A DNA stretch of 33,933 bases from an uncultured Nitrospiraceae bacterium (GTDB lineage Bacteria > Nitrospirota > Thermodesulfovibrionia > Thermodesulfovibrionales > UBA1546): positions 3,327 through 37,259 of the forward strand of contig CAZHHV010000001.1 of NCBI GenBank assembly GCA_964532335.1, read 5' to 3'. Positions 15,732 to 33,933 of the stretch are shown piece after piece. Every line of letters begins with the position of its first letter. Within the stretch, counting starts at the first letter, position 1. The position numbers and the translations under genes are program-made. A model generated the notes under the pieces. That model saw nothing but the letters and a program-made list of their open reading frames with translations, did not search any database and was not told the DNA's origin.

Positions 15732-15743
15732 TGGAAATACTTT

Positions 15744-17107: not shown

Positions 17108-17168
17108 GAACAAAAATGGTCATGTGGTATTACTTATGGTCTTATTAGTAACTTCTAACTCTTTCCTC

Positions 17169-17633: not shown

Positions 17634-17652
17634 TTCCTTAAATTTTCCTCGC

Positions 17653-17723
17653 CGTCATTCCGCACTTGATGCGGAATCCAGAGCTTCTGATGAGAACTGG
17701 ATTCCCGCCTGCGCGGGAATGAC
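17653..17723. repeat. GTCATTCC...GGAATGACA double-hairpin element, nuoE-nuoD junction
   Basis: The sequence is gtcattccGCActtgaTGCggaatccag, then a 15 nt spacer, then ctggattccCGCctgcGCGggaatgaca. Confidence 0.85.
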
Positions 17724-17740
17724 AAAACTAAAAACTGTAT

Positions 17741-18931: not shown

Positions 18932-18938
18932 AGTTTTT

Positions 18939-18990
18939 GGTGTCAGTGTCAGTTGTCAGTAGCTGACACTAATCACTGTCACTATTCACT
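18939..18990. repeat. Two-armed 6-7 nt tandem-repeat hairpin, nuoD-nuoC junction
   Basis: The left arm is tgtcag tgtcag ttgtcag, the loop is tag, and the right arm is ctgacac taatcac tgtcac tattcac. The perfect core palindrome tgtcagTAGctgaca lies at 18954-18968. Confidence 0.75.
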
Positions 18991-18994
18991 TTAG

Positions 18995-19528: not shown

Positions 19529-19536
19529 GTTCTTAG

Positions 19537-19602
19537 TGCAGTAGCTCAGCAGCGCAGTAGCGCAGTAGTATCCTTACTGCTGCTCTGTTGCTCTGCTGCT
19601 CT
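19537..19602. repeat. Two-armed octamer tandem-repeat hairpin, nuoC-nuoB junction
   Basis: The left arm is tgcagtag ctcagcag cgcagtag cgcagtag. The loop is tatcct. The right arm is (t)tactgctg ctctgttg ctctgctg ctct, which is partly complementary. Confidence 0.7.
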
Positions 19603-19606
19603 ATTT

Positions 19607-20119
19607 TTACCTCCACCTGCTCCATCTGAAATGCTCGCCTTTTATCTTTTCCTGAAGCTTTATTATCCCTTCAAGCAGAGTCTCAGGCCTTGGAGGACAG
19701 CCCGGTATATAAACATCCACAGGCAGGAAACTGTCGCATCCCTGCACGGTGCTGTATGTATTGAATATGCCTCCTGAACATGCGCAGCTCCCCATTGAAA
19801 TAACATATCTTGGTTCCGGCATTTGGTCATAGACCCTTCTCACAATCTCAGACATCTTCTTCGTTACAGTGCCTGCGACAATCATAAGGTCCGCCTGTCG
19901 TGGAGAGCCTCTGAAGATAACCCCCATCCTGTCCAGGTCATAGTGTGACGATCCCGTCGTCATCATTTCAATGGCGCAGCATGCAAGCCCGAAGGTCACG
20001 GGCCATAAGGACGAGCTTCTTCCCCAGTTGATGAGCTTGTCCATTGAGGTGATAATGATATTGGGCGACAGTATTTTTGTGCCTTTTTCAACCTCAACAA
20101 GATTAACCGCTGTGTCCAT
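19607..20119 (-). CDS. nuoB: NADH-quinone oxidoreductase subunit B (N2 cluster)
   Basis: It belongs to the PSST family ([11 protein letters not shown]...GSCACSGG...CPPRPE). Confidence 0.95.
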
Positions 20120-20142
20120 TAATATATACCTTACCCCTTTTT

Positions 20143-20226
20143 TTGCGTTTATTGCGTTATAGCGTTATTGCGTTCATTGTTTTCATTATTTTACGCTACA
20201 ACGCTATAACGCTTCACGCCATAACG
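20143..20226. repeat. Two-armed octamer tandem-repeat hairpin, nuoB-nuoA junction
   Basis: The left arm carries GCGTT every 8-9 nt (at 20145, 20154, 20162, 20170). The right arm carries ACGC every 8 nt (at 20193, 20201, 20209, 20217). There is a perfect 13 bp pairing of gcgttatagcgtt (20154-20166) with aacgctataacgc (20200-20212). Confidence 0.8.
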
Positions 20227-20231
20227 ATTTT

Positions 20232-20603
20232 TCAGTCCCATTTAAATGCCTCCTTTTTCCATGCATAAACATAGCCGACAAAAAGTATCACTATAAAAAT
20301 AACCATCTCAATAAATGCGTATAGTCCAATCCTGTCAAATACAACAGCCCAGGGATAAAGGAAAACAGCCTCAACGTCAAAGATAACAAAGAGCATGGCG
20401 ATAATATAGAATTTAACAGAAAATCTGTATCGCGGCTCTCCGACAGGCAGGTTGCCTGATTCATAAGGCATAAGTTTTTCAGGGTATGGCCTTTTCAGTC
20501 TGAGGAGTTCACCGATTAATAAGGCGCCCATTCCGAAGGCCGTTGCGACCATCAAAAATATAAGAACAGGCAAATAATCCGAAGGCAAATAAGTTCCGGG
20601 CAT
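20232..20603 (-). CDS. nuoA: NADH-quinone oxidoreductase subunit A
   Basis: It is 123 aa with 3 TM segments of the ND3 family (YESGNLPVGEPRYRFSVKFYIIAMLFVIFDVE) and is the first gene of the operon. Confidence 0.93.
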   Translation of the reverse strand: MPGTYLPSDYLPVLIFLMVATAFGMGALLIGELLRLKRPYPEKLMPYESGNLPVGEPRYRFSVKFYIIAMLFVIFDVEAVFLYPWAVVFDRIGLYAFIEMVIFIVILFVGYVYAWKKEAFKWD

Positions 20604-20752: not shown

Positions 20753-21748
20753 ATGATTGTAAAAAAATCTCTGCATTCATTGACCGGGAAGCTTATCATT
20801 GCCATAGGCACTCTTATGGTAGTAGTGAGCGCTGTCTTCTGGTATTTCCTGATACAACGGCAGGAGAAAGAACTTCTTGGCAATGCTGTAAAGTACGGTT
20901 CATCCTTTCTTAACCATGTAAAAGAGAGCACTCGCCATGATATGCTTGCCTTCCAACCACCTCTGACCCAGCAGACTCTTGAAGTATTAGGCTCTGGAGA
21001 GGGAGTCATCAATGTCAGGATATTAGATGCCAAAGGCAGAATTGCTTATTCATCAATAAAAGAAAAGAAAGGAGTCTTGCTTGATAAAAATGAAATGCCA
21101 TGCATCTCATGCCATTCTAAACCTCTGGAAAGAAGAGAGATGCCATTATGGGCTGTTAACAGAGGAAAAGAAGGCTATAGGATTCTGACTATTGTGCGGC
21201 CGATTCATAATGAACCTGCATGCTATACCTCTTCCTGCCATATTCATCCTAAGGAACAGCAGATTCTTGGGTTTGTGAAGGCAGACCTTTCATTATCTAT
21301 TCTGGATGAAACACTGAAAAAACAGAAGATAGCCATTACAGCCTTTCTCATTGGTTTTATCTGTTTATTGTCAGTAGTCCTCTGTACGATTCTATGGAAG
21401 ATTGTGTCTGTCCCTTTAAGTATGCTTACTCATGGCATGAAACGAGTGGCTGCAGGCGAACTCGATTATGTAGTGGAGATAAAAACAAAGGATGAGATTG
21501 GAGATCTTGCAAGGGCGTTTAATGCGATGACCGCAGATCTTTCAATAGCTAAAAAAGAGCTGATTGAATGGGGTACTACGCTCGAAAAAAAGGTTGAGGA
21601 GAAGACTGAAGACATAAGAAGGGCACAATCACAGCTCATCCATTCAGAAAAACTCGCTTCATTGGGAAGGATGGCAGCAGGCGTTGCCCACGAAATAAAC
21701 AGCCCGCTTACAGGCATAGTCACCTTTAGTCATCTCTTGCTTAAGTGA
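20753..21748 (+). CDS. Sensor histidine kinase, N-terminal part (TM1, periplasmic CXXCH/CX4CH domain, TM2, HAMP, first DHp helix with H-box), ending at an in-frame TGA
   Basis: TM segments lie at about residues 12-34 and 192-216. CISCH is at 21101-21115 and CYTSSCH at 21221-21241. A HAMP-like region ([13 protein letters not shown]) and the H-box [17 protein letters not shown] are present. Confidence 0.8.
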
Positions 21749-22333
21749 TTTCCAGAAGGCAGTCAGGAAAAGGAAGACATAAATATAATTATTGAGCAGG
21801 CAAATAGATGCTCTAATATCATAAAGGGGCTTCTTGGATTTGCCAGGGCAACATCAACAGATAAGACCCTTACAAGCATAAATGATGTTGTGCTAAGCGC
21901 TCTAAATATGGTAAGGCATAAGGCAGACTTTTTCAATATAAAGATTGTCTTAAATCTTGATGAGACTCTGCCGCCTGTGATGGCAAATGCATCCCAGCTC
22001 CAACAGGTATTTTTAAATATGATTATAAATGCAGCAGATGTAATGGAAAGCGTAGGGATATTGACCATTGCCACACGAAGGCAGACGAAAGACGGAATGC
22101 CCTTTACAGAGGTAGAATTTAGAGATACAGGACAGGGCATATCTGAGGAGAACATGTCAAAGATATTTGAACCATTCTTTACAACAAAACCAGTCGGGAA
22201 AGGCACAGGTCTTGGTCTTGCTGTAAGCCATGGTATCATTCAGGACCATGGAGGCAAGATACTGGTGAGAAGCAAATTAGGAGAAGGAACAAGTTTCTTT
22301 GTAAGATTTCCAGCATATGAGGGTAAAGTATGA
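21749..22333 (+). CDS. Same histidine kinase, C-terminal part (second DHp helix plus HATPase_c with N, G1, G2 boxes), in the same frame directly after the TGA
   Basis: The frame (mod 3) is the same as that of 20753-21748. The translation continues FPEGSQEKEDINIIIEQANRCSNIIKGLLGFAR..., with N box QVFLNMIINAADV, G1 DTGQGI and G2 GKGTGLGLAVS. There is no credible independent start; the first in-frame start codon is a GTG at 21890. The stop overlaps the next gene (ATGA). Confidence 0.75.
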   Translation, partial: FPEGSQEKEDINIIIEQANRCSNIIKGLLGFARATSTDKTLTSINDVVLSALNMVRHKADFFNIKIVLNLDETLPPVMANASQLQQVFLNMIINAADVMESVGILTIATRRQTKDGMPFTEVEFRDTGQGISEENMSKIFEPFFTTKPVGKGTGLGLAVSHGIIQDHGGKILVRSKLGEGTSFFVRFPAYEGKV

Positions 22334-22707
22334 GCAAAGGAAAGATTCTTGTTATAGATGATGAAGACATAGTTCTTATAAGTTGTAAGAGGGCGCTTGA
22401 GCCTGAAGGTTATGATGTAAAAACAGTCAAAAGCGGAGTGGAAGGCTTGAAGACTGCTGAGAATGAGGATTTCGATATTGTGATGACAGACCTGAAGATG
22501 CCTGACGTGGATGGCATAGAGGTTTTACGGATTATCAAAGAAAGAAAACCTGCCGTTGAAGTTGTTATCATGACAGGCTATCAAACTGTAGAGACAGCTG
22601 TTAAGGCTATAAAGCTCGGCGCATTTGATTATATTGAAAAACCGTTCACCCCTGAACAGATAATCTCTGTGATAAAGAATGCCATTGCTCATGAATCAAA
22701 AATGTAA
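22330..22707 (+). CDS. Single-domain response regulator (CheY-like receiver)
   Basis: It has DD at the N-terminus, the phospho-acceptor motif MTDLKMPDVDG, MTGY and EKPFTPE, and no output domain. It is translationally coupled to the kinase. Confidence 0.9.
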   Translation: MSKGKILVIDDEDIVLISCKRALEPEGYDVKTVKSGVEGLKTAENEDFDIVMTDLKMPDVDGIEVLRIIKERKPAVEVVIMTGYQTVETAVKAIKLGAFDYIEKPFTPEQIISVIKNAIAHESKM

Positions 22708-22719
22708 CCTGAGGTATAG

Positions 22720-22800
22720 ATGAATAGGACTAAAGTCCTCGTGATAGATAATGAAGATATTGTAAGGGCAGGATATTGTGGATTTAGTTCAGAAAGTTAA
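22720..22800 (+). pseudogene. Decayed receiver-domain remnant (26 codons)
   Basis: It translates to MNRTKVLVIDNEDIVRAGYCGFSSES*. The first 15 residues parallel the N-termini of the three intact receivers (KILVIDDEDIV...), after which the frame terminates. Confidence 0.4.
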
Positions 22801-22832
22801 TGTAGTATGTAACGCAGAAAGGAGGCATAATC

Positions 22833-23606
22833 ATGGGGGAAAAAGGGAAAATATTGGTGCTGGATGATGACCCTGTTGTTACTCTGAGCTGTAAAAGGAT
22901 TTTAGGTGCAGAAGGTTACAACATCATAACAGTAGACAGAGGCGAAGACGCAATTAAAAAGGTCTCCAATGAGGAATTTGACCTCCTGATATCTGATATA
23001 AGACTGCCTGATGTTAGCGGAATTACTGTTTTAAAAGAATCAAAGATTATCCAGCCAAAACTTGACGTTGTCATAATTACAGGTTATCCCACATTAGAGG
23101 ATGCCAAGGAGTCTGTGAGGCTCGGCGCGCTCGAGTTTATCGAAAAGCCCTTTACTCCCGAGTTTATGGTAAATGTTGCCAAAAAAGTATTTGACAGCAG
23201 GGGATGGATATTAAGGAAGGCGTTTATAGACGATTTCAGAAATGATATCGTTTCACTGAGGGATACTGAAAACCCGGTGATATTTTATAAGGAAGGAACA
23301 TGGGCAAGACCGCTGAAAAATGAAATATGGGAGATCGGGTGCGATGTAAGATACTGGCTGTTAGCAGGCCAACTCACATATATTGAGCTTTCTGAAAAGA
23401 TTGATATGCTTATAGCAGGGGAGCCGTTTGGCAAAATCTTATCAAGCACAGGACAGACCGAGAACCTTATTTCACCAATAACAGGCAGGGTTAAAGAGAT
23501 CAACATTAATGCTAATACTGCTATGAGCGCACTTATAAGGGATAACCTCAGTGAGGGGTGGTTGCTCTGGCTTGCGAGGATTGAACTGATAACAACATTG
23601 CCTTAA
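22833..23606 (+). CDS. Response-regulator receiver fused to a glycine-cleavage-H-like (lipoyl-fold) domain lacking the lipoyl lysine
   Basis: The REC domain has DDD, ISDIRLPDVSG (D55), ITGY and EKPFTPE. The C-terminal roughly 105 aa, FYKEGTWARP..EIGCDVRYWLLAGQLTYIEL...ISPITGRVKEIN...SEGWLLWLA, align by eye to GcvH (YtkeHeW..vGit..aq..lGdivfveLp...sPvsGevvevN...GWl.ki). The SD is AGGAGG. Confidence 0.8.
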   Translation: MGEKGKILVLDDDPVVTLSCKRILGAEGYNIITVDRGEDAIKKVSNEEFDLLISDIRLPDVSGITVLKESKIIQPKLDVVIITGYPTLEDAKESVRLGALEFIEKPFTPEFMVNVAKKVFDSRGWILRKAFIDDFRNDIVSLRDTENPVIFYKEGTWARPLKNEIWEIGCDVRYWLLAGQLTYIELSEKIDMLIAGEPFGKILSSTGQTENLISPITGRVKEININANTAMSALIRDNLSEGWLLWLARIELITTLP

Positions 23607-23663
23607 CCCTGTTAGAGAACTTCCTCTAACGGGATAAAAATTTGACAAGCGAAGGAGAAACTT

Positions 23664-24497
23664 ATGTTTAAAATCTTAAAAAAGGAAGAGCTATCAGAAA
23701 GCATAACCCTATTTGATATTGATGCGAAAGATATTGCAAAAAAGGCAAAGCCAGGCAATTTTATTGTTCTTAAGATTCATGAGGAGGGAGAGAGGATACC
23801 TTTAACTATTGCTGATTTTGATAGGGAAAAAGGAACCATAACTACTGTATTCCAGAAGGTTGGAAAGTCAACCTATCACCTTGGAGCATTAAATGAAGGT
23901 GATTTTATAACTGATGTTATAGGCCCTCTCGGTATTCCTTCCCATATAGAAAATTTTGGAAAGGTTGTCTGTATAGGTGGTGGAGTTGGAATTGCGCCTA
24001 TTTACCCGATAACAAAGGCATTAAAAGAGGCAGGTAATATAATAATTTCTATCATAGGCGCAAGGACAAAGTCACTCCTTTTCTGGGAAGAAAAAATGCG
24101 CAAGGTATCAGATGAACTAATTATTACGACAGATGATGGCTCTTACGGCAGAAAGGCAGTGGTAACTATTCCATTGGAAGAACTTCTGAAGGAGGGCAAT
24201 ATAAATTTAGTAGTCGCTATCGGCCCTGCTATTATGATGAAATTTGCCTGTAAGACAACAGAAAAATACAATGTAAAAACTATAGTTAGTTTAAATTCAA
24301 TCATGATTGATGCAACAGGGATGTGCGGCGGCTGTAGAGTAGGGGTAGGAGGGGAGACAAAGTTTTGCTGTGTTGACGGCCCTGAATTTGATGGACATAA
24401 GGTTGATTTTGATCTGCTTATGGAAAGACAGAAGATGTATCTTGATGAGGAAAGGTTAGCCATGCAAAGGTATAGAGAAAAAATGGGGGTGAAATGA
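23664..24497 (+). CDS. nfnA: NADH-dependent reduced ferredoxin:NADP+ oxidoreductase subunit A (SudB/PyrK-like FAD/[2Fe-2S] protein)
   Basis: It is near-collinear with the Thermotoga NfnA sequence as I recall it (MFKIL.K.EL...KPGNF..L.IHE.GERIPLT.AD.D.EKGTIT...GMCG.CRV.VGGE.KF.CVDGPEFD.H.VD). The SD is AAGGAG. Confidence 0.85.
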   Translation: MFKILKKEELSESITLFDIDAKDIAKKAKPGNFIVLKIHEEGERIPLTIADFDREKGTITTVFQKVGKSTYHLGALNEGDFITDVIGPLGIPSHIENFGKVVCIGGGVGIAPIYPITKALKEAGNIIISIIGARTKSLLFWEEKMRKVSDELIITTDDGSYGRKAVVTIPLEELLKEGNINLVVAIGPAIMMKFACKTTEKYNVKTIVSLNSIMIDATGMCGGCRVGVGGETKFCCVDGPEFDGHKVDFDLLMERQKMYLDEERLAMQRYREKMGVK

Positions 24498-25945
24498 GCA
24501 TGGAGGAAAAAGAGGAGAAAAAAGAGGAAAAAAAACCAAAAAAGAGAGTAAAGATGAGGGAACAGGACCCTCTGGTGAGGGCGAGGAATTTTGATGAGGT
24601 TCCTTATGGATACACCCCGGATGATGCAGTTGAGGAGGCATCAAGATGCCTGCAGTGCAAGAAACCTGCCTGTAGAGAAGGGTGCCCTGTAGAGATAGAT
24701 ATACCGCCATTTATACAGCTTATCACCAAGCATGATTTCATTGGCGCTGCAAGAAATATCCGTGAAAAAAACAGCCTTCCTGCTGTTTGTGGAAGGGTAT
24801 GTCCACAGGAGATTCAATGTGAAGCCTTATGTATCTTAGGGAAAAAGGCAGAGTCTGTTGCCATAGGCAACCTTGAGCGATTTGCAGCAGACTATGACAG
24901 GGTTCATGGAAAGTTTGAGATGCCTGAGATGGCAGAGCCAAATGGCAGAAAGGTTGCTATTATCGGCTCAGGTCCTGCCGGATTGACAGCAGCAGGCGAC
25001 CTCAGAAAAAAGGGTTATGAGGTTGCTGTTTTTGAGGCGCTCCATGAACTGGGTGGTGTTCTTGTCTATGGCATCCCTGAGTTCAGACTTCCCAAGAAGA
25101 TTGTCAAGGCTGAAATATCATATCTTGAAAGGATAGGGGTAAGGTTTCAAACTAATGCAGTGATTGGAAAGCTCTATACAGTTGATGAACTATTGAACAG
25201 CCACGGATATGATGCCTGCTATATTGGAATAGGCGCAGGGTTGCCTATGTTTATGGGAATACCAGGAGAAAACCTAAACGGTATTTACTCTGCGAATGAA
25301 TTTTTAACAAGGGCAAATCTAATGAAGGCATATCTTTTCCCTGAGTATGATACACCGATAAAGAGAGGCAAAAAGGTTGCTGTATTCGGCGGCGGCAATG
25401 TCGCTATGGATGCTGCAAGGGTGGCCCTCAGACTTGGTGCAGATAAGGTCTATCTTATATACAGGCGTTCTGAGGCTGAGATGCCGGCAAGAAAGGCAGA
25501 AGTTCATCATGCACATGAGGAGGGAATAGAATTCTTGCTATTAACAAATCCAACAAGATTTATTGATGACGGCAAGGGGAATGTCTGTGGGGTTGAATGT
25601 ATAAAGATGGAATTAGGAGAGCCTGACGAATCCGGCAGAAGGAAACCGATTCCTATTAAAGGCAGTGAATTTCAGATTGAGATAGATGTTGCAATACCTG
25701 CACTCGGAACAAGGGCAAATCCAATTTTAACAAAAACCGTGCCTGATTTAAAATTAAACAAGAGGGGGTATATTGTAGCTGAAGAGGAAACAGGCATGAC
25801 CTCAAAACCAGGCGTCTTTGCAGGCGGAGATATAGTTACAGGCTCTGCAACGGTTATCCTGGCTATGGGCGCAGGAAGAAAGGCAGGAAGGGCGATTAAT
25901 GAATATATAAAATGGAAATACTGGAACTTTAGCATGAGTAAATGA
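24494..25945 (+). CDS. nfnB: NADH-dependent reduced ferredoxin:NADP+ oxidoreductase subunit B (GltD/SudA-like)
   Basis: The N-terminal motif NFDEVPYGYTPDDAVEEASRCLQCKKPAC..GCPV is present, along with a 2x[4Fe-4S] region and the dinucleotide folds KVAIIGSGPAGL and VAVFGGGNVAMD. It overlaps the nfnA stop (ATGA). Confidence 0.85.
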   Translation: MSMEEKEEKKEEKKPKKRVKMREQDPLVRARNFDEVPYGYTPDDAVEEASRCLQCKKPACREGCPVEIDIPPFIQLITKHDFIGAARNIREKNSLPAVCGRVCPQEIQCEALCILGKKAESVAIGNLERFAADYDRVHGKFEMPEMAEPNGRKVAIIGSGPAGLTAAGDLRKKGYEVAVFEALHELGGVLVYGIPEFRLPKKIVKAEISYLERIGVRFQTNAVIGKLYTVDELLNSHGYDACYIGIGAGLPMFMGIPGENLNGIYSANEFLTRANLMKAYLFPEYDTPIKRGKKVAVFGGGNVAMDAARVALRLGADKVYLIYRRSEAEMPARKAEVHHAHEEGIEFLLLTNPTRFIDDGKGNVCGVECIKMELGEPDESGRRKPIPIKGSEFQIEIDVAIPALGTRANPILTKTVPDLKLNKRGYIVAEEETGMTSKPGVFAGGDIVTGSATVILAMGAGRKAGRAINEYIKWKYWNFSMSK

Positions 25946-25975
25946 GTAATACAACTTTCGCAGATGATTTTTGGT

Positions 25976-26049
25976 TGTCATTCCGTGCTTGACACGGAAT
26001 CCAGTTCCACAATATATCCCTCTGGATTCCCGCTTTCGCGGGAATGACA
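25976..26049. repeat. GTCATTCC...GGAATGACA double-hairpin element downstream of nfnB (nested inside a perfect 12 bp outer IR, 25952-25963 / 26069-26080)
   Basis: The sequence is tgtcattccGTGcttgaCACggaatccag, then a spacer, then ctggattccCGCtttcGCGggaatgaca. The outer pair is caactttcgcag / ctgcgaaagttg. Confidence 0.85.
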
Positions 26050-26119
26050 GAAGGCGTTTTTAAAAGTGCTGCGAAAGTTGACTTATTGACTCAATTAAAA
26101 GAAGGGAGGAGTTATTTTT

Positions 26120-26989
26120 ATGGCAAATGCTACCAAAATTCTTGTTGTGGACGATGAAGCTATAGTAATAAGAAGCGCTGAAAGGGTTCTTAAGGCTGAA
26201 GGTTATAATGTTGAAGGGGTTCTTAGTGGAAGAGAGGCTATGCTCAAGATGGAACAGAGCAGTTATGACCTTGTCTTAACAGACCTTAAGATGCCAGAGG
26301 TGGATGGAATCACATTGATAAGATGGATGCGGAAATTCCGACCTTCTATCGGTATTGTAATCATTACAGGCTATCCATCACAGGAGACAATTAAAGAAGC
26401 CCTTGAATTAGGCATTATTGATTATGTCCCAAAACCCTTTACACCGGCAGTTCTGACAGATGTAACACACAGGGCATTAGAATGGCTGAAAGGAAAGGCA
26501 TACATTGAAGAAAAGCCTAAAGAGGAATTCCCTCCTTCTATGCTCAATGAACTGGACAGAGTCATAAAAGAACATAAAAATAAAGCCGGCAGCCTCATAC
26601 CTGTGCTTCAGCGGGCTCAGGAGATTGTAGGCTACCTTCCATCGTTTATACAGAAGCGAGTTGCAAAGGGACTGAATATTCCTGCAGCAGAGGTGCATAG
26701 CGTTGTCTCATTCTATTCATTCTTTACTATGAAACCCAGAGGGGAACACCTCATCAGGCTCTGTCTCGGGACTGCCTGTTATGCAAAAAAATCAGAGGCA
26801 ATTCTGGAGAAATTCATGTCAGAATTAGGTGTAAATGTTGAGGAGGTTACAGAGGATAAAAAGTTTTCACTTGAGACTGTCCGATGCCTTGGCGCATGCG
26901 GTCTCGCACCAGTGGCAGTAGTAGACGAAGATACCTATGGTTTACTGCATCCAAAGAAGGTAAGAGAGGTTATTAATGTATATAGATAA
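26120..26989 (+). CDS. Response-regulator receiver fused to a NuoE/HydC-like thioredoxin-fold [2Fe-2S] subunit
   Basis: The REC domain spans residues 1-125 (DD11-12, D55 in LTDLKMPEVDG, ITGY, K105 in PKPFTP). Residues 140-289 are NuoE-like (LIPVLQRAQE..GYLP) with C215-x4-C220-x35-C256-x3-C260. The SD is GGGAGGA. Confidence 0.85.
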   Translation: MANATKILVVDDEAIVIRSAERVLKAEGYNVEGVLSGREAMLKMEQSSYDLVLTDLKMPEVDGITLIRWMRKFRPSIGIVIITGYPSQETIKEALELGIIDYVPKPFTPAVLTDVTHRALEWLKGKAYIEEKPKEEFPPSMLNELDRVIKEHKNKAGSLIPVLQRAQEIVGYLPSFIQKRVAKGLNIPAAEVHSVVSFYSFFTMKPRGEHLIRLCLGTACYAKKSEAILEKFMSELGVNVEEVTEDKKFSLETVRCLGACGLAPVAVVDEDTYGLLHPKKVREVINVYR

Positions 26990-27003
26990 AGAGGAGGTAA
27001 ACT

Positions 27004-27387
27004 ATGCCAAGACTAACTATAGATGATTTAAGAAAGATTAAAGAACAACATAAGGCAACCTTTACCTTAAGGGAAGGCGGCTACAGGGCAAAAGTTACCG
27101 TCCATATGGGGACATGCGGCATAGCTGCCGGCGCAAGAAATATAATGACCGTTTTAATGGACGAAATAGCACAGGTCAAGGTTGAAGATGTGATTGTTAC
27201 TACATCAGGGTGTGCGGGACTTTGCGCCCGTGAACCCATGGCCACAGTAGAGATAGTAAATAATCCTCCGGTCAGATACATTGACCTGACAGAGGAAAAG
27301 ATTAAAGAGATATTTAAGGAACATATTATGGGTGGTAATGCAGTAGAAAAATATGCATTGGCTATTGGAAGTGAGACGACATATTAA
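27004..27387 (+). CDS. HndB-like small thioredoxin-fold [2Fe-2S] ferredoxin
   Basis: It is 127 aa with VTVHMGTCGIAAGA...TSGCAGLCAREP, the pattern seen in HndB / HydB-N-terminal-type domains. The SD is AGGAGG. Confidence 0.8.
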   Translation: MPRLTIDDLRKIKEQHKATFTLREGGYRAKVTVHMGTCGIAAGARNIMTVLMDEIAQVKVEDVIVTTSGCAGLCAREPMATVEIVNNPPVRYIDLTEEKIKEIFKEHIMGGNAVEKYALAIGSETTY

Positions 27388-27399
27388 CCCTTCCTCTTT

Positions 27400-27420
27400 C
27401 CTCCCCTTACTAAGGGGAGG
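27400..27420. repeat. CCTCCCCTTA-C-TAAGGGGAGG palindrome between the HndB-like and NuoF-GltD genes
   Basis: It is a perfect 10+1+10 palindrome embedded in a C/T-rich then G/A-rich context (27388-27440). It has the same CCCCTT...AAGGGG core as the element inside the gene at 3721-3762. Confidence 0.7.
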
Positions 27421-27446
27421 ATGGGTGGGGTAGAGGAGAGAAATTG

Positions 27447-30400
27447 ATGGAAAAGTTTCGTGCAAATGTGATGCTCTGTGCAGGGACAGGTTGTATTGCG
27501 AGCGGAACTATGAAGGTTAAGTCCGCCCTCGTGGAAGAATTGAGAAAGAGGGGGCTTGAAAATGAGATACAGGTTATCATGACAGGCTGTAATGGCTTCT
27601 GTGCACAAGGACCTATTGTGTCTGTCTACCCTGATAATATCTTTTACCAGGCATTAAAGGTAGAGGATGTCCCTCATCTGGTAGAAGAACATTTCTTAAA
27701 GGGCAGACCTGTAAAGAGATTGATGTATCAGGAACCAGACAAGAAAATAACTGTTCCAGCTATGGGTGAGATACCTTTCTTTAAACATCAGGTGCTTCGT
27801 GTCCTGCGAAATAAAGGACTCATTGATCCTGAAAAGATTGAAGAATACATTGCCAGGGATGGTTATCTTGCTGCTGCAAAGGCGCTCACTGAGATGACTC
27901 CTGAAGAAATAATAAAAGTTGTAAAAGACTCGGGTGTAAGGGGCAGAGGCGGCGCAGGGTTTCCGACGGGTTTAAAATGGGAATTTGCCTCAAAGTCAAA
28001 GGCAGACCAGAAATTTATGCTCTGCAATGGCGATGAGGGGGACCCTGGTGCGTTCATGGACAGGTCTGTTATGGAGTCTGACCCGCATTCAGTAATTGAA
28101 GGTATGATTATAGGCGCTAGTGCCATAGGCGCAAGCAAAGGCGTTATCTATGTAAGGGCGGAATATCCTCTTGCTGTAAAACGTCTTCAACTTGCTATTG
28201 ATCAGTGTTATGATGCAGGACTGCTCGGGAAAAACATCCTTGGCTCAGATTTTAATTTTGACCTCAGCATATACCTTGGTGCAGGCGCCTTTGTCTGTGG
28301 CGAAGAAACAGCCCTCATGCGTTCTATTGAAGGAAAACGCGGGATGCCAATACCAAGGCCGCCCTTCCCTGCACAAAAAGGGCTCTGGGATAAACCTTCA
28401 GTCCTGAATAATGTTGAAACCTTAGCCCAGATTGCTCCGATAATATTAAATGGCGCTGAATGGTATAAAAGCCTCGGGACCGAGAAAAGCACAGGAACAA
28501 AGGTATTTGCCCTTACAGGCGCTATAAGCAATGTAGGTCTGGTTGAAGTTCCTATGGGAATTCCCCTGAGGACAATTATATATGATATCGGAGGCGGGAT
28601 AAGAAAGGGGAAATTCAAGGCTGTACAGCTTGGAGGTCCGTCAGGCGGCTGTATTCCTGAAAGCCTTCTCGACACCCCTGTCACGTATGAAGATATTGTA
28701 GCAACAGGCGCCATTGTCGGCTCTGGCGGCATGGTCGTTCTGGATGACAGCAACTGCATGGTCAGTTTAGCTAGATTCTTCCTCGGCTTTACAACAGAGG
28801 AATCCTGCGGAAAGTGTCCTCCGTGCAGGGTAGGGACAAAGATTTTATTAGATATGCTTACGGATATCACAGAAGGCAGGGGAAAAGAGACTGATGTCGA
28901 GACGCTAGAGGACCTCAGTAGAGATATTATTGCCACATCTCTATGCGGCCTTGGACAGACAGCCCCGAATCCTATCCTTACTACAATTAAATATTTCAAA
29001 GATGAGTATGAAACTCATATCAAATATAAGAGATGTGAGGCAATGGTCTGCAAGGAGATAATATCATCTCCCTGTCAGCATACCTGCCCTATTGGCACAG
29101 AAGTGCCTGTCTATGCAGCCTTAATCGCCCAAAGACGCTTTGATGAGGCAGTTCAGGTTATTAGAAAAGACAATCCACTGGCAAGTGTCTGCGGCCGTGT
29201 CTGTACTCACCCCTGCGAATCCAATTGCAAATCAGGAGAGGCGGGAAAACCCCTTGCAGTAAGGGCACTGAAGCGATTTGCTACTGATTACGGGCTGCAA
29301 ACAGGCTACAAATTACCGATTAAACGCAAAGAGCCAAAAAATAAAAAGGTTGCCATTATAGGCTCAGGGCCAGGAGGGCTCACAGCAGGTTGCTTCCTTG
29401 CCATAGAAGGTTATGATGTTACAATCTTTGAGGCAAAGTCTGTTTTAGGTGGTATGCTGAGAGTAGCCATACCTACATATCGTTTGCCAAGAGAGCTGCT
29501 GGATGCTGATATTGACGCCATTAAAGAGGCAGGGGTTAAATTCCAAACAAATACAGCATTGGGGAAAGAAATCTCTATTAACAGCCTTTTCAATGATGGG
29601 TATGAAGCTATTTTTATCTCAGTCGGCGCCCATAAGCCGATGGACCTGGGCATCCCTGGTGAGGATAGCGAAGGGGTCATAGGCTCTTTGAAATTTCTTG
29701 AGGCAGTAAATCTGGGCAAAGATATAAAGGTTGGCAAAAGGATTGGTATTATCGGTGGGGGGAATGCTGCAGTTGACGCTGCCAGGGCTGCACATCGCCT
29801 TCCAAATACAGAGAAGGTTACACTTATCTACAGAAGGACAAGGGCAGAGATGCCGGCATTTAAAGAGGAAGTGGATGCTGCAATTGAAGAGGGTATTGAT
29901 ATACAGTTCCTGAGCGCACCAACAAGGGTATTAACACAAAATGGAAAACTTGCCGGCATTGAGGCTATCCGTATGGAATTAGGAGAACCAGATGCAAGCG
30001 GAAGAAGAAAACCTGTCCCTATTAGCGGTTCTGAATTTATCATAGAATTAGATACATTAATAAGGGCAATCGGGGAAGCTCCTGATATTACATTCCTTGG
30101 AGGTCAGGGACTTGAGATTTCTAAAAGGAATACCCTTGTAGTTGACCCTGAGACTTTAGCCACTAAAAGAAAAGGGGTCTTTGCCGGTGGAGATGCGGTG
30201 ACCGGTCCAAAAACCGTTATACATGCTATTGCAGCCGGTAAGTTAGCCGCTGAATCCATTGATAAATATCTCAGGGGGGAAAGCATAGAAAGGGAATACA
30301 ATGTAACCCGACCATCCATGTATATTGAACCGGTTGAGCTGACCGATGAGGAAATAGAGAGCGCTGCCCGGCCTGAGATGTCCCATCTGCCTATAAAAGA

Positions 30401-30587
30401 TAGGGTTAAGAACTTTAAAGAGGTGGAATTAGGTTTCACTGAAGAGACGGCAGTTAAAGAGGCAAGGAGATGCCTAAGATGTGAATTAGGAACGATGGAA
30501 GGCACACAAGCAATGCAGGAAATGCGAGAAAAGAAAAAAATCGAAAAAGAAAAATTACAGAAGGCAGGAGGAGTCAAAAATGATTGA
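27447..30587 (+). CDS. Fusion protein: N-terminal [2Fe-2S] domain plus NuoF/HydB-like FMN/NADH module plus GltD/NfnB-like Fe-S/FAD/NAD(P)H module
   Basis: Counting from the TTG at 27444: CAGTGC...GCNGFCAQGP lies in residues 10-57. GRGGAGFPTGLKW, CNGDEGDPGAF and ESCGKCPPCRVG lie in residues 165-462. From about residue 530 the GltD-like region begins, with CQHTCPIG...VCGRVCTHPCESNC, KVAIIGSGPGGL, IGIIGGGNAAVD and GVFAGGDAV. The ATG at 27447 has the SD GAGGAGAG upstream. Confidence 0.85.
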   Translation: MEKFRANVMLCAGTGCIASGTMKVKSALVEELRKRGLENEIQVIMTGCNGFCAQGPIVSVYPDNIFYQALKVEDVPHLVEEHFLKGRPVKRLMYQEPDKKITVPAMGEIPFFKHQVLRVLRNKGLIDPEKIEEYIARDGYLAAAKALTEMTPEEIIKVVKDSGVRGRGGAGFPTGLKWEFASKSKADQKFMLCNGDEGDPGAFMDRSVMESDPHSVIEGMIIGASAIGASKGVIYVRAEYPLAVKRLQLAIDQCYDAGLLGKNILGSDFNFDLSIYLGAGAFVCGEETALMRSIEGKRGMPIPRPPFPAQKGLWDKPSVLNNVETLAQIAPIILNGAEWYKSLGTEKSTGTKVFALTGAISNVGLVEVPMGIPLRTIIYDIGGGIRKGKFKAVQLGGPSGGCIPESLLDTPVTYEDIVATGAIVGSGGMVVLDDSNCMVSLARFFLGFTTEESCGKCPPCRVGTKILLDMLTDITEGRGKETDVETLEDLSRDIIATSLCGLGQTAPNPILTTIKYFKDEYETHIKYKRCEAMVCKEIISSPCQHTCPIGTEVPVYAALIAQRRFDEAVQVIRKDNPLASVCGRVCTHPCESNCKSGEAGKPLAVRALKRFATDYGLQTGYKLPIKRKEPKNKKVAIIGSGPGGLTAGCFLAIEGYDVTIFEAKSVLGGMLRVAIPTYRLPRELLDADIDAIKEAGVKFQTNTALGKEISINSLFNDGYEAIFISVGAHKPMDLGIPGEDSEGVIGSLKFLEAVNLGKDIKVGKRIGIIGGGNAAVDAARAAHRLPNTEKVTLIYRRTRAEMPAFKEEVDAAIEEGIDIQFLSAPTRVLTQNGKLAGIEAIRMELGEPDASGRRKPVPISGSEFIIELDTLIRAIGEAPDITFLGGQGLEISKRNTLVVDPETLATKRKGVFAGGDAVTGPKTVIHAIAAGKLAAESIDKYLRGESIEREYNVTRPSMYIEPVELTDEEIESAARPEMSHLPIKDRVKNFKEVELGFTEETAVKEARRCLRCELGTMEGTQAMQEMREKKKIEKEKLQKAGGVKND

Positions 30588-33042
30588 GCTTACAATCAAT
30601 GACAAAAAAATAACTGCAGAGGAAGGCTCCACAATCCTCCAAACCGCAACAAAAAATGGTATTAAGATACCAAATCTATGCTTTGACAAAAGACTCAGGC
30701 CTTATGGCGGATGCAGGCTTTGTGTTGTTGAGGTAGAGAAACAGCCGAGGCTTTTTGCTGCATGCTCAACCCCTGTTGCTCCTGGAATGGTTGTTAAAAC
30801 CGATACTCCTAAACTCAGAAAAGCCCGCCAGACAGTGCTCGAACTTCTTCTTGTGCATCATCCGCTGGACTGCCCAATATGCGATAAGGCAGGCGAATGC
30901 GACCTTCAGGACCTCGCATATGAATTTGGCAAACCTGAAGGACGTTTCATAAGACACAGAAAAGAAACCCCGCCTGATGTCAGAGGACCACTAATAGAGC
31001 TTACTTCAAACAGATGCATTCTATGTGGCAAATGTGTACGAATCTGTAGTGAATATCAAGGAAGAGGGGCATTGGGACTGATAGGAAGGGGATTTCCTAC
31101 TGTTGTTCAGCCCGCATTCGGTGAAATCCTTGAATGCGACTACTGCGGCCAGTGTATTGATATATGCCCGACAGGCGCGCTTTTGAGTAAGCCGTTCAAG
31201 TTTCAGGCACGTGCATGGTTTCTCGATGAAAAAGACACAATCTGTCCTTTCTGCGGATGCGGCTGCACTCTTACTTTGGGTATAAGAGAAGGGAAGATAT
31301 TAAGATCAAGAGGCCAGGAAGACAATGGAAGGAGCGAAGGCAACCTGTGCGGCAGGGGCAGGTTTGGATTTGATTACATATACAATGAGAGCCGTCTTAA
31401 AACGCCTTTGATAAGAAAAGAAGGTTCACTGGTTCCTGCAACATGGGATGAGGCATTATCATATATAAGCGATAGCCTGAATTTTATTATCAATTCTTAC
31501 GGAAAAACATCAGTAGGCGCTCTCGGCTCTCACAGATGTACGAATGAAGACAACTTTATGCTGAAAAAGTTCATGATGAACGTTGTTGGTTCAAACAACT
31601 TTGACTCTGCTGCCGCATTCGGATATTCAAAGGTTCAGCAGGCTCTCGATAAGGCATTCGGATTAAAGACCCATCCGATTAACCTGAAATCACCATTGGG
31701 CAAGGAAGTTATTCTGATAATTGAATCGGATATCAGCATTACACATCCTGTATTCGGACTTAATATCCTTCAGGCAAAAAGAGAAGGCTCAAGGCTTATT
31801 GTCGCTGATTCAAGGGAGACAAAACTCACAAGGCATAGTACGACTCAACTAAAAATGAGACAGGGCGCTTCTGTTGCGCTGCTCAATGGAATAATGAAGA
31901 TAATAATAGATAAGGGTCTTTTCAACAGGGAGATAGTTTCCAAGACCCCGGGGTTTTCAGAATTCGAAAAGGGCCTTAATGATTACATCTCTGAAGATGT
32001 CTCAAGGATTACAGGGATTTCCGTAGAGGAACTCGTATCTGCTGCAGAGACTATTGCAAGGGCTAAAAGCAGAATGATCTCATTCACAATCAATTCGACA
32101 GAGAACACAAAAGGAGCAGATCTGGTTTTTGCAGCTTCGAATCTTGTAATCCTCTTAGGCGATGAGACAGATACATTGCAGATCCCTGCTGAATATGCAA
32201 ACACATTTGGAGCTTACAAAATGGGAATAAGGCCGGATGCAGATGGAAAGAATCTATTTGATATGCTTTATGAATCGGGCTCACTCCATGCCCTTTATAT
32301 AATGGGCGAGGATCCTGTTTCAGCATTTCCTTACAATTCAAAGATTATAAGGACACTTAAATCGCTCGAACTGCTTGTTGTTCAGGATATTGCCCTGACA
32401 GAGACAGCCAAGCTTGCGCATGTTGTGCTTCCTGCATCAAGCTGGGCAGAGAAAGACGGCACATTCATTAATGCCGAGGGGGTTGCGCAGACATTGAAAA
32501 AGGCAATAGACGCCCCCGGCCAATCACTGCCAGACTGGCAGATCCTGAGAAATCTCTCGTTATCAATGGGGACTGATATTGGGATAAGGAGTATAGAAGA
32601 CATCTCAAGGGAGATAAACTCGTCAATCGTCAATCGTCAATCGTCAATCGTCAATCGTCAATCGTTTAATCCTGTGTTATATACACGCGGAGAAGAGCCT
32701 GATACAGAATATCCATTGTCACTTGTCACAAGAGATATCCTTCAGCATTCAGGAACGATGACAACACGCTCAAAGGCGCTTGACCTTGTTGTTCCCGAAC
32801 CTTTTCTTGAGATTAATGATGAGGATGCCAAAAAATTCGGCATATCTGACAACAGCCATGTTAAGGTTTCATCAAGGAGAGGCACAGTATATCTGAAGGC
32901 AAAGGTTTCTGATGTTATACCTTCTGGAACTGTTTTCACTTCAGTTCATTTTCCTCACGGCCGTGTTAATGCGCTCACAAATCTCTCAGAAAATGGCACA
33001 GCAACCCCAGACGCTGTAAGAGTAGAAAGGGTTATAATATAA
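30580..33042 (+). CDS. NuoG-like / formate-dehydrogenase-alpha-like Fe-S molybdopterin-fold subunit lacking the catalytic Cys/Sec-His
   Basis: It has an N-terminal [2Fe-2S] region (CRLCVVEV), HPLDCPICDKAGEC, 2x[4Fe-4S] motifs, and the motif CPFCGCGCTL...LCGRGRFG. NNFDSAAAFGYS occupies the position of NNvD.CARvUH in FDH. The SD is AGGAGG and the start overlaps the upstream stop. Confidence 0.85.
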   Translation: MIELTINDKKITAEEGSTILQTATKNGIKIPNLCFDKRLRPYGGCRLCVVEVEKQPRLFAACSTPVAPGMVVKTDTPKLRKARQTVLELLLVHHPLDCPICDKAGECDLQDLAYEFGKPEGRFIRHRKETPPDVRGPLIELTSNRCILCGKCVRICSEYQGRGALGLIGRGFPTVVQPAFGEILECDYCGQCIDICPTGALLSKPFKFQARAWFLDEKDTICPFCGCGCTLTLGIREGKILRSRGQEDNGRSEGNLCGRGRFGFDYIYNESRLKTPLIRKEGSLVPATWDEALSYISDSLNFIINSYGKTSVGALGSHRCTNEDNFMLKKFMMNVVGSNNFDSAAAFGYSKVQQALDKAFGLKTHPINLKSPLGKEVILIIESDISITHPVFGLNILQAKREGSRLIVADSRETKLTRHSTTQLKMRQGASVALLNGIMKIIIDKGLFNREIVSKTPGFSEFEKGLNDYISEDVSRITGISVEELVSAAETIARAKSRMISFTINSTENTKGADLVFAASNLVILLGDETDTLQIPAEYANTFGAYKMGIRPDADGKNLFDMLYESGSLHALYIMGEDPVSAFPYNSKIIRTLKSLELLVVQDIALTETAKLAHVVLPASSWAEKDGTFINAEGVAQTLKKAIDAPGQSLPDWQILRNLSLSMGTDIGIRSIEDISREINSSIVNRQSSIVNRQSFNPVLYTRGEEPDTEYPLSLVTRDILQHSGTMTTRSKALDLVVPEPFLEINDEDAKKFGISDNSHVKVSSRRGTVYLKAKVSDVIPSGTVFTSVHFPHGRVNALTNLSENGTATPDAVRVERVII
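32621..32665 (+). repeat. Perfect heptanucleotide tandem repeat (CGTCAAT)x6 plus CGT inside the NuoG-like gene
   Basis: Read directly from the sequence: six exact 7 nt units followed by cgt. It translates as SSIVNRQSSIVNRQS, a 7 aa periodicity arising from 21 nt. Confidence 0.95.
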
Positions 33043-33062
33043 CCGTTTAAAAATTTTTAAGC

Positions 33063-33401
33063 ATGACATTAAACGAAATCAAAAGAATACTCAACGCAGT
33101 GGCGCTCTCAAAGATAGAAGATATGAATCTCAATATTGTAAGGGCTTACTGTGCCGATCTCATGAGTGATGTGCTTGCATTTTCTATAACAAATTCCCTT
33201 TTGATAACACATTTAACAAATACACAGGTAATTCGCACTGCTGAGATTGCGGATGTCAAAACAATAGTATTTGTTCAGAGTAAAAGGCCTGATATAGAAA
33301 CAATCGCATTAGCAGACACAAAGAATATCCCTCTGCTTGTAACCGATCTTTCGATGCATGAGACATGCGGGAAACTTTACGAGAAAGGACTAAGGAGTTA
33401 G
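33063..33401 (+). CDS. DRTGG-domain small regulatory protein
   Basis: It is 112 aa. DLMSDVLAF...LLITHLTNTQVIRTAEIADVKTIVFVQSKRP...NIPLLVTDLSMHETCGKLY resembles the DRTGG domain as found in HydABC-type gene clusters (from memory). Confidence 0.65.
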   Translation: MTLNEIKRILNAVALSKIEDMNLNIVRAYCADLMSDVLAFSITNSLLITHLTNTQVIRTAEIADVKTIVFVQSKRPDIETIALADTKNIPLLVTDLSMHETCGKLYEKGLRS

Positions 33402-33415
33402 CTTAATACTAAAAA

Positions 33416-33892
33416 ATGAGTAACAAGGTCATTGAAGGAGTTTTTTTTCTTACGGGCAAGGATTTCTCTAATGCGGGCGCTGCCTCAAGCAATTTGAAGG
33501 GAATATTAGAAGGCATGAGTGTTCAGCCAGATATTATAAGAAGGGCTGCTATAGCAGCATTTGAGGCAGAGATGAACACGATTATATACTCTGTGGCAGG
33601 AATGATGAATTATTGCATAACTCCTGAAATAATACGAGTTGTCCTTAAGGATGTCGGTCAGGGCATCGAAAATATTGAACTTGCCATGAAAGAGGGATAT
33701 TCGACAGCCCCGGACTACATAAGAGAAATGGGGTTTGGCTCAGGTATGGGCCTTCCGAATATCAAAAGGAATGCGGATGAGATGAACATCAATTCCACGG
33801 TCGGTGAAGGCACAACGCTTGAATTTATTATATACCTGAACAAGAAAGAAGAATTAAAAGGAGCGCGCTATGAAACTGCAGGAAATTGTTAA
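33416..33892 (+). CDS. Small HATPase_c protein (RsbW/SpoIIAB-like anti-sigma kinase / histidine-kinase-like ATPase)
   Basis: N-box-like EAEMN, a G1-like DVGQGI and a G2-like GFGSGMGLPNIKRNAD...GTTLEF are present. There is no DHp or H-box. Confidence 0.7.
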   Translation: MSNKVIEGVFFLTGKDFSNAGAASSNLKGILEGMSVQPDIIRRAAIAAFEAEMNTIIYSVAGMMNYCITPEIIRVVLKDVGQGIENIELAMKEGYSTAPDYIREMGFGSGMGLPNIKRNADEMNINSTVGEGTTLEFIIYLNKKEELKGARYETAGNC

Positions 33893-33933
33893 TAGACTTT
33901 CCCTTGATGTAAAAACGCCTTCTCTGGATCTAA
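33870..33933 (+). CDS. 5' end of a further ORF (possibly another DRTGG/CBS-type regulator), truncated by the window edge
   Basis: An ATG at 33870 overlaps the end of the HATPase gene. Only 21 codons of translation (MKLQEIVNRLSLDVKTPSLDL) are visible. Confidence 0.3.
   Translation, partial: MKLQEIVNRLSLDVKTPSLDL

Follow-up and report, generated by a model that had tools for sequence, protein, structure and literature searches.

Receiver domains fused to a NuoE-type subunit and a GcvH-fold protein in a kinase-linked oxidoreductase cluster of Thermodesulfovibrionia

In the genome of an uncultured Nitrospiraceae bacterium (assembly GCA_964532335.1, contig CAZHHV010000001.1), a membrane-bound histidine kinase is encoded together with three receiver (REC) domains, one of which is fused to the NuoE-like [2Fe-2S] subunit of a Bfu-type oxidoreductase and another one to a GcvH-fold domain. 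The stretch of 33,933 nt that was analysed, referred to as the window, carries this cluster on its + strand from position 20753 to its end. A core composed of kinase, REC, REC-GcvH, REC-NuoE, HndB, NuoF and NuoG-like protein is conserved in related genomes, and the window is a variant of this unit that has gained NfnAB and a NuoF fused to GltD. In anaerobes that live close to the thermodynamic limit, the balance between NADH, NADPH and ferredoxin is set by flavin-based bifurcating enzymes of the HydBC/Bfu type. We know of no described mechanism for post-translational regulation of Bfu enzymes, and none was found in the literature searched. In the present cluster a receiver is placed on the subunit whose [2Fe-2S] domain is thought to gate bifurcation. 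Judging from the sequences, we assign a probability of roughly 0.5 to the reading that phosphorylated receivers would switch the enzyme at the protein level. If true, this would represent a new output class for response regulators.

Three receivers, two of them fused to redox-protein folds

Open reading frames (ORFs) of the window were listed and their products scanned with Pfam and NCBIfam. The order on the + strand is kinase, CheY-like receiver (REC1), receiver stub, REC-GcvH, NfnA, NfnB, REC-NuoE, HndB-like protein, NuoF-GltD fusion, NuoG-like subunit, DRTGG protein and HATPase. This gene order and the domain calls had been proposed in a preliminary description of the DNA and were reproduced gene by gene. 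The tight, partly overlapping arrangement on one strand that it had noted was likewise seen in the ORF coordinates: ATGA overlaps are present at the kinase/REC1 and NfnA/NfnB junctions, the NuoF-GltD and NuoG genes overlap by 8 nt, and the remaining gaps between cluster genes mostly measure 14-57 nt.

The stand-alone receiver REC1 (22330..22707, +; 125 aa) matches Pfam Response_reg with an E-value of 1e-32 and comes after the kinase in related loci as well. When scored against PF00072 (cut-off 30.2 bits), the three window receivers reached 112.8, 84.6 and 98.2 bits, and all of them keep the full catalytic set, i.e. the DD pair, D55, T83 and K105. They share 38-46% identity with one another and 27-34% with CheY. 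These identities and the complete catalytic residues bear out the earlier view that the window encodes three intact, paralogous receivers, and the caveat attached to it, that the N-terminal domains might turn out not to be receivers or to lack the acceptor Asp, is answered by the Pfam matches and by D55. Thus, the sequences support that the window receivers are genuine and phosphorylation-competent.

REC-NuoE (BfuC; 26120..26989, +) consists of a receiver and a complete [2Fe-2S] subunit of the NuoE/HydC/StnA type. Its NuoE part matches PF01257 (2Fe-2S_thioredx) over the full length, and the cysteine motifs CLGTAC and CLGAC are conserved among orthologues. In 80 REC-NuoE orthologues (56-81% identity), residues D11, D12, D55, T83 and K105 are 100% conserved. 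The invariance of these five catalytic residues argues for selection on phosphorylation chemistry in the clade of the window. In an AlphaFold2 model with a predicted local distance difference test (pLDDT) score of 84.6, the receiver lies N-terminal to the NuoE fold and is separated from it by a disordered linker of ~15 residues (124-138). The PDB structures closest to the NuoE fold are HydC (7q4v_C, 7t2r_C) and StnA (8oh5_A), with template modelling (TM) scores of 0.86-0.92. The BfuC-type chains among the top structural matches (HydC, StnA, NfnC) each comprise ~150 aa and carry no receiver.

The second fusion protein, REC-GcvH (22833..23606, +), has Pfam matches to REC and GCV_H, the latter (PF01597) with 26.2 bits at a cut-off of 22.2. 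AlphaFold2 modelled its C-terminal domain with pLDDT values of 70-91; the receiver half was poor (25-55; shallow alignment) and therefore the C-terminal domain alone was used for comparison by Foldseek. All of the 21 best PDB matches were GcvH or GcvH-like proteins (top E-value 1e-6, TM scores 0.6-0.65). In 68 orthologues of REC-GcvH the receiver residues D11, D12, D55 and K105 are invariant, and T83 is present in 67 of them, the remaining one being gapped at this position. The sequence SSTGQ of the window protein aligns to the lipoyl hairpin ESVKA, and the Gly at the position of the Lys is conserved in the 68 orthologues. As this Gly takes the place of the lipoyl-lysine, a role of the GcvH-like domain as lipoyl carrier can be ruled out.

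The kinase (20753..22333, +; Pfam HAMP, HisKA and HATPase_c) is composed of a first transmembrane segment, a periplasmic domain of ~160 aa, a second transmembrane segment, HAMP, HisKA with H313 as the H-box His, and HATPase_c. Two motifs, C117xxCH and C157x4CHxH, sit in the periplasmic part between the two hydrophobic segments, and their Cys and His residues are 98-100% conserved among 46 homologues. Pfam detected no cytochrome domain in the kinase; the conserved motifs would fit a periplasmic sensor domain with two putative c-type haems.

The reading frame of the kinase is crossed by an in-frame TGA at 21746-21748 (codon 332). In 49 homologues the aligned codon specifies Lys or Arg. Moreover, an independent assembly, Logan contig L081 (run SRR12113399), differs from the window in only 2 bases over 4869 nt (19000-23868); it reads AGA at this codon and encodes an intact kinase of 526 aa. 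Given the single A/T difference from L081, the TGA is probably a single-nucleotide polymorphism or an assembly error, which is the simplest explanation. Selenocysteine insertion or another recoding event is ruled out by the Lys/Arg codons of the homologues and the AGA of L081, and it is also opposed by the use of TGA as stop codon elsewhere in the cluster. A true pseudogene was not adopted, as a polymorphism or assembly error is simpler. The second difference between L081 and the window is C/A at 19958, inside nuoB.

Conservation among relatives and the σ54 branch

To place the cluster among its relatives, a scan of species-representative genomes was used, which yielded 527 relatives; the locus counts below refer to the best 80 of these 527. 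Nearly all of the 80 are labelled Nitrospirota/Thermodesulfovibrionia, and two records name no taxon. Every window protein was mapped onto the related loci by tblastn, and denominators give the evaluable loci; presence of the kinase was counted in the 57 loci with at least 8 kb of upstream flank. In a separate database search, REC-NuoE produced 6718 matches at E ≤ 1e-10. The best 120 of these are 70-92% identical to the window protein and all contain both Pfam domains; where their source organism is named, it belongs to the Nitrospirota.

Of 74 loci, 59 have the REC-GcvH gene immediately before that of REC-NuoE, and in another 5 the two are separated by NfnAB as they are in the window, so that both fusion proteins are linked in 64 of 74. 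A kinase of the window family is present in 45 of 57 loci, HndB in 50 of 55, NuoF in 52 of 55 and the NuoG-like protein in 54 of 55. It is on these counts that the conserved core is defined. The prospect that the synteny might be peculiar to this contig, with receiver-less orthologues everywhere else, did not materialise. NfnAB, on the other hand, is found in 6 of 80 loci only, and a NuoF fused to GltD in a single one (L002) of 55 relatives. The fusion in the window is a rare, probably imported variant. Wiring of a two-component system into two oxidoreductase modules, as suggested originally, therefore holds for one of them: the link between kinase and the REC-NuoE enzyme is conserved, whereas NfnAB, which carries no receiver and is rare, is a passenger. 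The receiver on NuoE is a conserved feature of an entire class of sulfate and sulfur bacteria of the subsurface.

Two minor observations concern the make-up of these loci. The window is a mosaic: for its kinase, NuoG-like and DRTGG genes the closest counterparts are those of L057 (89% identity), while the block comprising NfnAB, REC-NuoE, HndB and NuoF-GltD is closest to L002 (79-92%), which suggests that the middle block of the cluster has been exchanged by recombination. Further, three loci with NfnAB (L051, L052, L066) have no kinase nearby, and in these a second pair of genes for NuoF and the NuoG-like protein follows directly after the first one (~15800-20400).

The absence of a DNA-binding output, to which the preliminary description had drawn attention, proved correct for the window but not for its relatives. 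No helix-turn-helix (HTH) or AAA+ domain is encoded in the whole 34-kb window as judged by Pfam and tblastn. In 17 related loci, however, a σ54-dependent regulator of the NtrC type with REC, AAA+ (Sigma54_activat) and HTH_8 domains is encoded directly upstream of REC-GcvH (L002, L016, L024, L034, L037-39, L041, L043-45, L047, L048, L050, L054, L068 and L074; called by Pfam in L016 and L048 and by tblastn). Among the carriers is L002, which alone of the relatives has NuoF-GltD as well. Wherever the kinase is present too, the NtrC-type gene follows the kinase and REC1 genes. All 17 loci also possess a -24/-12 site (TGGCAY-N5-TTGCW) located 39-112 nt upstream of the REC-GcvH start, as compared to 8 of 50 loci lacking NtrC. 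Such sites precede none of 46 kinase genes and only 3 of 78 REC-NuoE genes. The 17 loci resemble NtrB/NtrC-type σ54 systems in having both a REC-AAA+-HTH_8 regulator and a -24/-12 site. From this we infer that the kinase cluster, in about a quarter of the related genomes, additionally acts through a σ54-dependent activator of the operon. In four of the 8 loci that have the site and lack NtrC (L001, L027, L042, L078), 10 kb of upstream flank contain no NtrC gene, and the regulator may be unlinked there.

In the window, the slot of the NtrC-type gene is occupied by a receiver N-terminus of 26 codons containing the sequence VIDNED (22720..22800, +), directly upstream of REC-GcvH. The ORF at 22720-22800 encodes MNRTKVLVIDNEDIVRAGYCGFSSES followed by a stop codon and matches N-termini of receivers only, so the decayed receiver remnant recognised earlier is real. 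Its 16 informative residues match the N-termini of REC1 and of NtrC equally. An assignment to NtrC by sequence was therefore discarded, and the stub is linked to NtrC by its position only. No intergenic σ54-type site was detected in the window within 2 mismatches; the total count of matches was below chance and a targeted scan was negative as well. On this comparative evidence, the missing DNA-binding output is best read as a secondary, lineage-specific loss, the transcriptional branch apparently having been deleted in the lineage of the window, which keeps the 26-codon stub only.

The NtrC branch opens a different view of the fusion proteins. REC-NuoE and REC-GcvH could either take up phosphate as a sink or inhibit the kinase by feedback, and would thereby tune an NtrC-type output encoded in cis or in trans; how well the receiver draws or returns phosphoryl groups would then depend on the redox state of the complex or of its NuoE [2Fe-2S] cluster. 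In that case, an enzyme subunit would feed redox information back into a two-component system. The strict coincidence of the NtrC-type regulator and the σ54-type site upstream of REC-GcvH (17 of 17 loci) fits this idea, and so does the 59% identity between REC1 and the receiver of the NtrC protein of L016, by which the receivers probably compete for one and the same kinase. A precedent exists in an Fe-S-binding single-domain receiver that is reported to feed back on its kinase (PMC7078487). Nevertheless, 33 of 57 loci have the kinase and no cis-encoded NtrC, and most of these also lack the σ54-type site. Furthermore, the NuoE part is a complete BfuC that is always followed by NuoF and NuoG, which makes REC-NuoE an enzyme subunit in the first place. 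We therefore regard feedback on the kinase as unlikely.

Composition of the oxidoreductase

The enzyme to which the NuoE-like subunit belongs was compared with structurally characterised Bfu complexes. NuoF-GltD (27444..30587, +) is a protein of 1047 aa with a NuoF of the BfuB/HydB type. Pfam assigns an N-terminal 2Fe-2S domain, Complex1_51K, NADH_4Fe-4S, Fer4_20 and Pyr_redox_2, and the NuoF part is predicted to hold a [2Fe-2S] cluster, flavin mononucleotide (FMN) and a [4Fe-4S] cluster. The extra N-terminal [2Fe-2S] domain typical of BfuB is represented by a match to PF01257 at residues 6-82 (25.1 bits at a cut-off of 24.8) with 4 Cys. In the PDB, residues 4-541 best match HydB-type chains from bifurcating hydrogenases (7t2r_B, 7q4v_B), while the best matches of residues 542-1014 are the GltD domains of 9bov_A, of NfnA from Nfn-Bfu (9n5u_A) and of StnC (8oh5_C). 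Fer4_20 of the GltD module comes directly after NADH_4Fe-4S (442-525), with no ferredoxin-like 2x[4Fe-4S] domain in between. Accordingly, tblastn with the C-terminal dicluster domain of L016 gave no match in the window. Nearly all relatives, in which NuoF is unfused, encode a HydB-type NuoF of 623 aa ending in such a Fer4 dicluster. In the solved Nfn-Bfu complex, ferredoxin is reduced at the C-terminal ferredoxin-like 2x[4Fe-4S] domain of BfuB, which carries clusters B3 and B4 (PMC12018979).

The adjacent gene encodes the NuoG-like subunit (BfuA; 30580..33042, +; 820 aa) with [2Fe-2S] and [4Fe-4S] clusters and an FdhF-like molybdopterin domain. Compared to FdsA of Rhodobacter capsulatus (6tg9_A), Cys386-His387 is changed to Gly-Tyr; the molybdopterin-type domains are otherwise complete. 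The same substitution, visible as a motif of the type DSSAAFGY, is present in 26 of 26 cluster-encoded NuoG-like orthologues among those listed. The protein scores above the cut-off of the NuoG model TIGR01973 and reaches 472 in the Fdh-alpha model TIGR01591 (cut-off 666). The missing catalytic Cys/Sec-His pair and the score below the Fdh-alpha cut-off rule out a formate dehydrogenase, and the FdhF-like domain is, by these residues, predicted to be catalytically dead. Between REC-NuoE and NuoF-GltD lies the gene for a small thioredoxin-like protein of the HndB/HydD type (27004..27387, +) with 3 Cys and a weak match to Pfam 2Fe-2S_thioredx.

This inventory closely resembles the Stn/Nfn-Bfu enzymes of the Sporomusa type (8OH5, 9BOV/9BP5, 9N5U), which share the NuoE-like [2Fe-2S] subunit, the HydB-type NuoF with its N-terminal [2Fe-2S], a GltD/NfnB-like module for flavin adenine dinucleotide and NADPH, and a NuoG-like Fe-S subunit whose terminal FdhF-like domain is inactive. 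StnC combines [2Fe-2S], GltD-like NADPH-binding, NuoG and catalytically inactive FdhF domains (PMC10482914). Hence, GltD is part of StnC in that enzyme, whereas in the window it forms the C-terminus of NuoF, where it takes the place of the ferredoxin-like 2x[4Fe-4S] domain. The HndB-like subunit is additional in the window, and the N-terminal receiver on its NuoE-like subunit is missing from the solved BfuC chains that were matched. Taking the PDB matches and the published domain make-up of StnC together, the window enzyme appears as the Stn/Nfn-Bfu inventory cut differently.

Upstream of REC-NuoE, the genes at 23664-25945 qualify by sequence as a classical NfnAB (NfnSL). The NfnA-type FAD/NAD-binding [2Fe-2S] subunit (23664..24497, +; Pfam DHODB_Fe-S_bind) scores 423 bits in NCBIfam NF004862 (cut-off 220). 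The NADPH-binding subunit of the NfnB/GltD type (24494..25945, +; 2x[4Fe-4S]; Pfam Fer4_20 and Pyr_redox_2) reaches 568 bits in TIGR01316 (cut-off 472). The pair thus passes both subunit models, is joined by an ATGA overlap and is devoid of a receiver. By its predicted domains, the window therefore holds a domain-shuffled transhydrogenase of the Stn/Nfn-Bfu type in addition to NfnAB.

Similarity also extends to clusters of the HydABC/Hnd type, which likewise contain a HydBC-like core, an HndB/HydD-like subunit and the accessory genes DRTGG–HATPase–PHP–HATPase. As compared to these, the window lacks an H-cluster domain, its BfuA has no catalytic site, and a His-Asp system with receiver-fused subunits is added.

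Divergently to the cluster, a complete nuoA-N operon (5024..20603, -) is located, which encodes an ordinary NuoF of 419 aa that is not of the Bfu type; it provides context and is not part of the system. A divergent nuo operon adjoins the cluster in 30 of 57 related loci. This neighbourhood raises the question whether the membrane-bound complex I encoded there could use the NuoE/NuoF/NuoG-like trio, which in most relatives has no third-substrate domain, as an alternative input module coupled to ferredoxin, with phosphorylation of the receiver selecting the module that docks. That the NuoG-like protein passes the NuoG model and has no catalytic site would agree with such a role, as would the lack of an obvious subunit for a third substrate in the unfused relatives. 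However, the nuo operon possesses its own complete NuoEFG, the adjacency is missing in 27 of 57 loci, and by analogy with Stn the GltD NADPH module of the window would rather indicate a soluble transhydrogenase. We consider an input module for complex I very improbable. The head-to-head order seen in the 30 loci does suggest that the nuo operon and the kinase gene may share region 20604-20752 for their regulation.

A candidate protein-level switch, distant relatives and flanking genes

How might the receivers act on the enzyme? The NuoE-like subunit of Nfn-Bfu has a mobile [2Fe-2S] domain at its C-terminus, which moves back and forth between FMN and clusters B3/B4 and "gates electron bifurcation" (PMC12018979); Stn is active as a tetramer of heterotrimers (PMC10482914). 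We propose that the kinase would sense the redox state of the periplasm and phosphorylate the receivers. The phosphorylated receiver on BfuC, with REC-GcvH as an accessory, phospho-dependent partner, could then alter docking, dimerisation or oligomerisation. As a consequence, the swing of the BfuC [2Fe-2S] domain, which in solved Bfu enzymes controls the passage of electrons between FMN and the low-potential branch, might change and the enzyme would be switched at the protein level; REC1 would serve as a competing or connecting receiver. In a more specific and decidedly tentative version, the kinase with its putative periplasmic haem sensor would act on the enzyme within seconds and with no need for transcription, either turning it on and off or shifting it between a coupled and an uncoupled mode, the mobile [2Fe-2S] domain being locked or released or the oligomer being changed with the help of REC-GcvH.

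Several points weigh against this protein-level switch. The kinase frame of the window holds a stop codon, even though that of the independent assembly does not, and a kinase of the same family is not seen nearby in 12 of the 57 loci with at least 8 kb of upstream flank. In the AlphaFold2 model of REC-NuoE, the flexible linker and a low predicted TM score (0.48) leave no defined interface between REC and NuoE. Since NuoF-GltD has no domain for B3/B4, electron bifurcation or use of ferredoxin by the enzyme of the window is uncertain. The retention of an NtrC-type σ54 regulator together with a matching promoter-like site in 17 relatives indicates that the ancestral output of the kinase may have been mainly transcriptional. 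Finally, a receiver on NuoE can apparently function without phosphorylation, as some receivers of distant REC-NuoE proteins are degenerate. Gating of the enzyme by phosphorylation is plausible.

The distant proteins were found in an exhaustive search of representatives at 50% identity, which returned only about a dozen clusters of full-length REC-NuoE; named members belong to the Thermodesulfovibrionales and Dissulfurispiraceae. In alignments, distant REC-NuoE proteins (L084/L085 and L082/L083) display 31-32% identity. Locus L084 encodes Rex, a Cache-type kinase, REC-NuoE, a protein of 117 aa, HydB, the [FeFe] hydrogenase HydA, a free REC and HydF/G/E. Locus L082 encodes DRTGG, REC-NuoE, BfuB, a small BfuA, HdrA, MvhD and HdrBC-like proteins and has no kinase. 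The fused receiver recurs in hydrogenase-linked and Hdr-linked versions. It is canonical in the L084 type and degenerate in the L082 type, with one example each. In several distant families (P0246, P0247, P0279, P0297) the receivers are degenerate, with the acidic pocket, the acceptor Asp or the Thr missing.

Degenerate receivers in several distant families, one of them in the kinase-less cluster L082, would be expected if the receiver on NuoE were a constitutive domain for assembly or dimerisation, or if it responded to acetyl phosphate, the kinase and REC1 being mere neighbours. The fact that Bfu enzymes work as higher oligomers (PMC10482914) is in line with a structural role. However, the five catalytic residues that are invariant in the 80 orthologues of the window's clade speak against this view, as do the linkage to the kinase in 45 of 57 loci and the presence of another kinase beside the canonical REC-NuoE of L084. 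It appears quite unlikely to us, more so than a feedback on the kinase.

In other phyla (KSB1, Aminicenantes, Latescibacterota), fusions of NuoF and GltD are common and occur together with a receiver-less NuoE. This distribution indicates that the receiver was added to an enzyme family that already existed and, by the loci compared, has been retained across different classes of Bfu enzymes.

In terms of its parts, the architecture combines known kinds, i.e. response regulators without DNA-binding output and Bfu-type enzymes. CheY, CheB, PleD, RssB and PorX, as well as the Fe-S receiver FixT, likewise use a canonical receiver to control a protein or partner. In the present case, by comparison, two items would serve as output, a GcvH-fold domain and a structural Fe-S subunit belonging to a multi-subunit, flavin-based oxidoreductase. 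REC-NuoE and REC-GcvH proteins are annotated only generically in databases. The preliminary description knew of no receiver fused to an oxidoreductase subunit of this sort, and our literature search, which left most subscription journals outside its scope, agrees: it retrieved no description of a receiver on a subunit of the NuoE/HndA/HoxE/HydC type and none of a receiver–GcvH-fold architecture. Searched by term, the Bfu family survey by Schut et al. (2022) gave no occurrence of receiver, CheY, kinase, DRTGG or fusion.

Downstream of NuoG, the window enters an accessory gene set. Its first gene encodes a DRTGG protein (33063..33401, +) with a weak Pfam match below the cut-off, and the second one a small protein consisting of HATPase_c only (33416..33892, +; Pfam HATPase_c and HATPase_c_2 just under the cut-offs). 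The latter is weakly SpoIIAB-like (NCBIfam spIIAB, E-value 4e-12, below the cut-off). The five genes of the set encode DRTGG, SpoIIAB-like HATPase, DRTGG-like protein, PHP phosphoesterase and another HATPase. In 32 of 46 loci the set accompanies the cluster, located either after NuoG or directly after the kinase and REC1 genes (e.g. L016, 15743-18160); its last three genes lie beyond the end of the window. Its composition hints at a second regulatory layer of the Ser/Thr or partner-switching type.

Scans for RNA families and signals added little: Rfam produced zero family matches in the window, and promoter-like σ70 sites were as numerous as in shuffled controls. Terminator-like matches were somewhat commoner (19 versus 11.8 ± 3.7 in shuffled controls), with no intergenic one on the + strand inside the cluster. 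The remaining flanks are ordinary. A gene resembling ADP-forming acyl-CoA synthetases (3270-4745, -) comes after nuoN, and a T2SSE/MshEN secretion ATPase and an ABC ATPase are encoded further upstream (1015-2826, +).

Two of the receiver-less relatives have a noteworthy gene context. In L087 (GCA_040960625.1, 600-12400), a receiver-less NuoE and NuoF-GltD are encoded between glnA and a GltB-like Glu_synthase gene, and the set is preceded by genes for DRTGG, HATPase, a HydS-like protein with [FeFe]-hydrogenase domain, PHP and HATPase; it may represent a Bfu-type (NADH/ferredoxin-linked) glutamate synthase with a sensory module of its own. In L086, a metagenome-assembled genome of Aminicenantes (4400-17800), a NuoF-GltD of 1273 aa is encoded beside MvhD and a fusion of the HdrA-like/Fer2_4 kind; genes for a PAS histidine kinase and for an NtrC-type regulator come next, which makes L086 a receiver-less relative under conventional two-component control.

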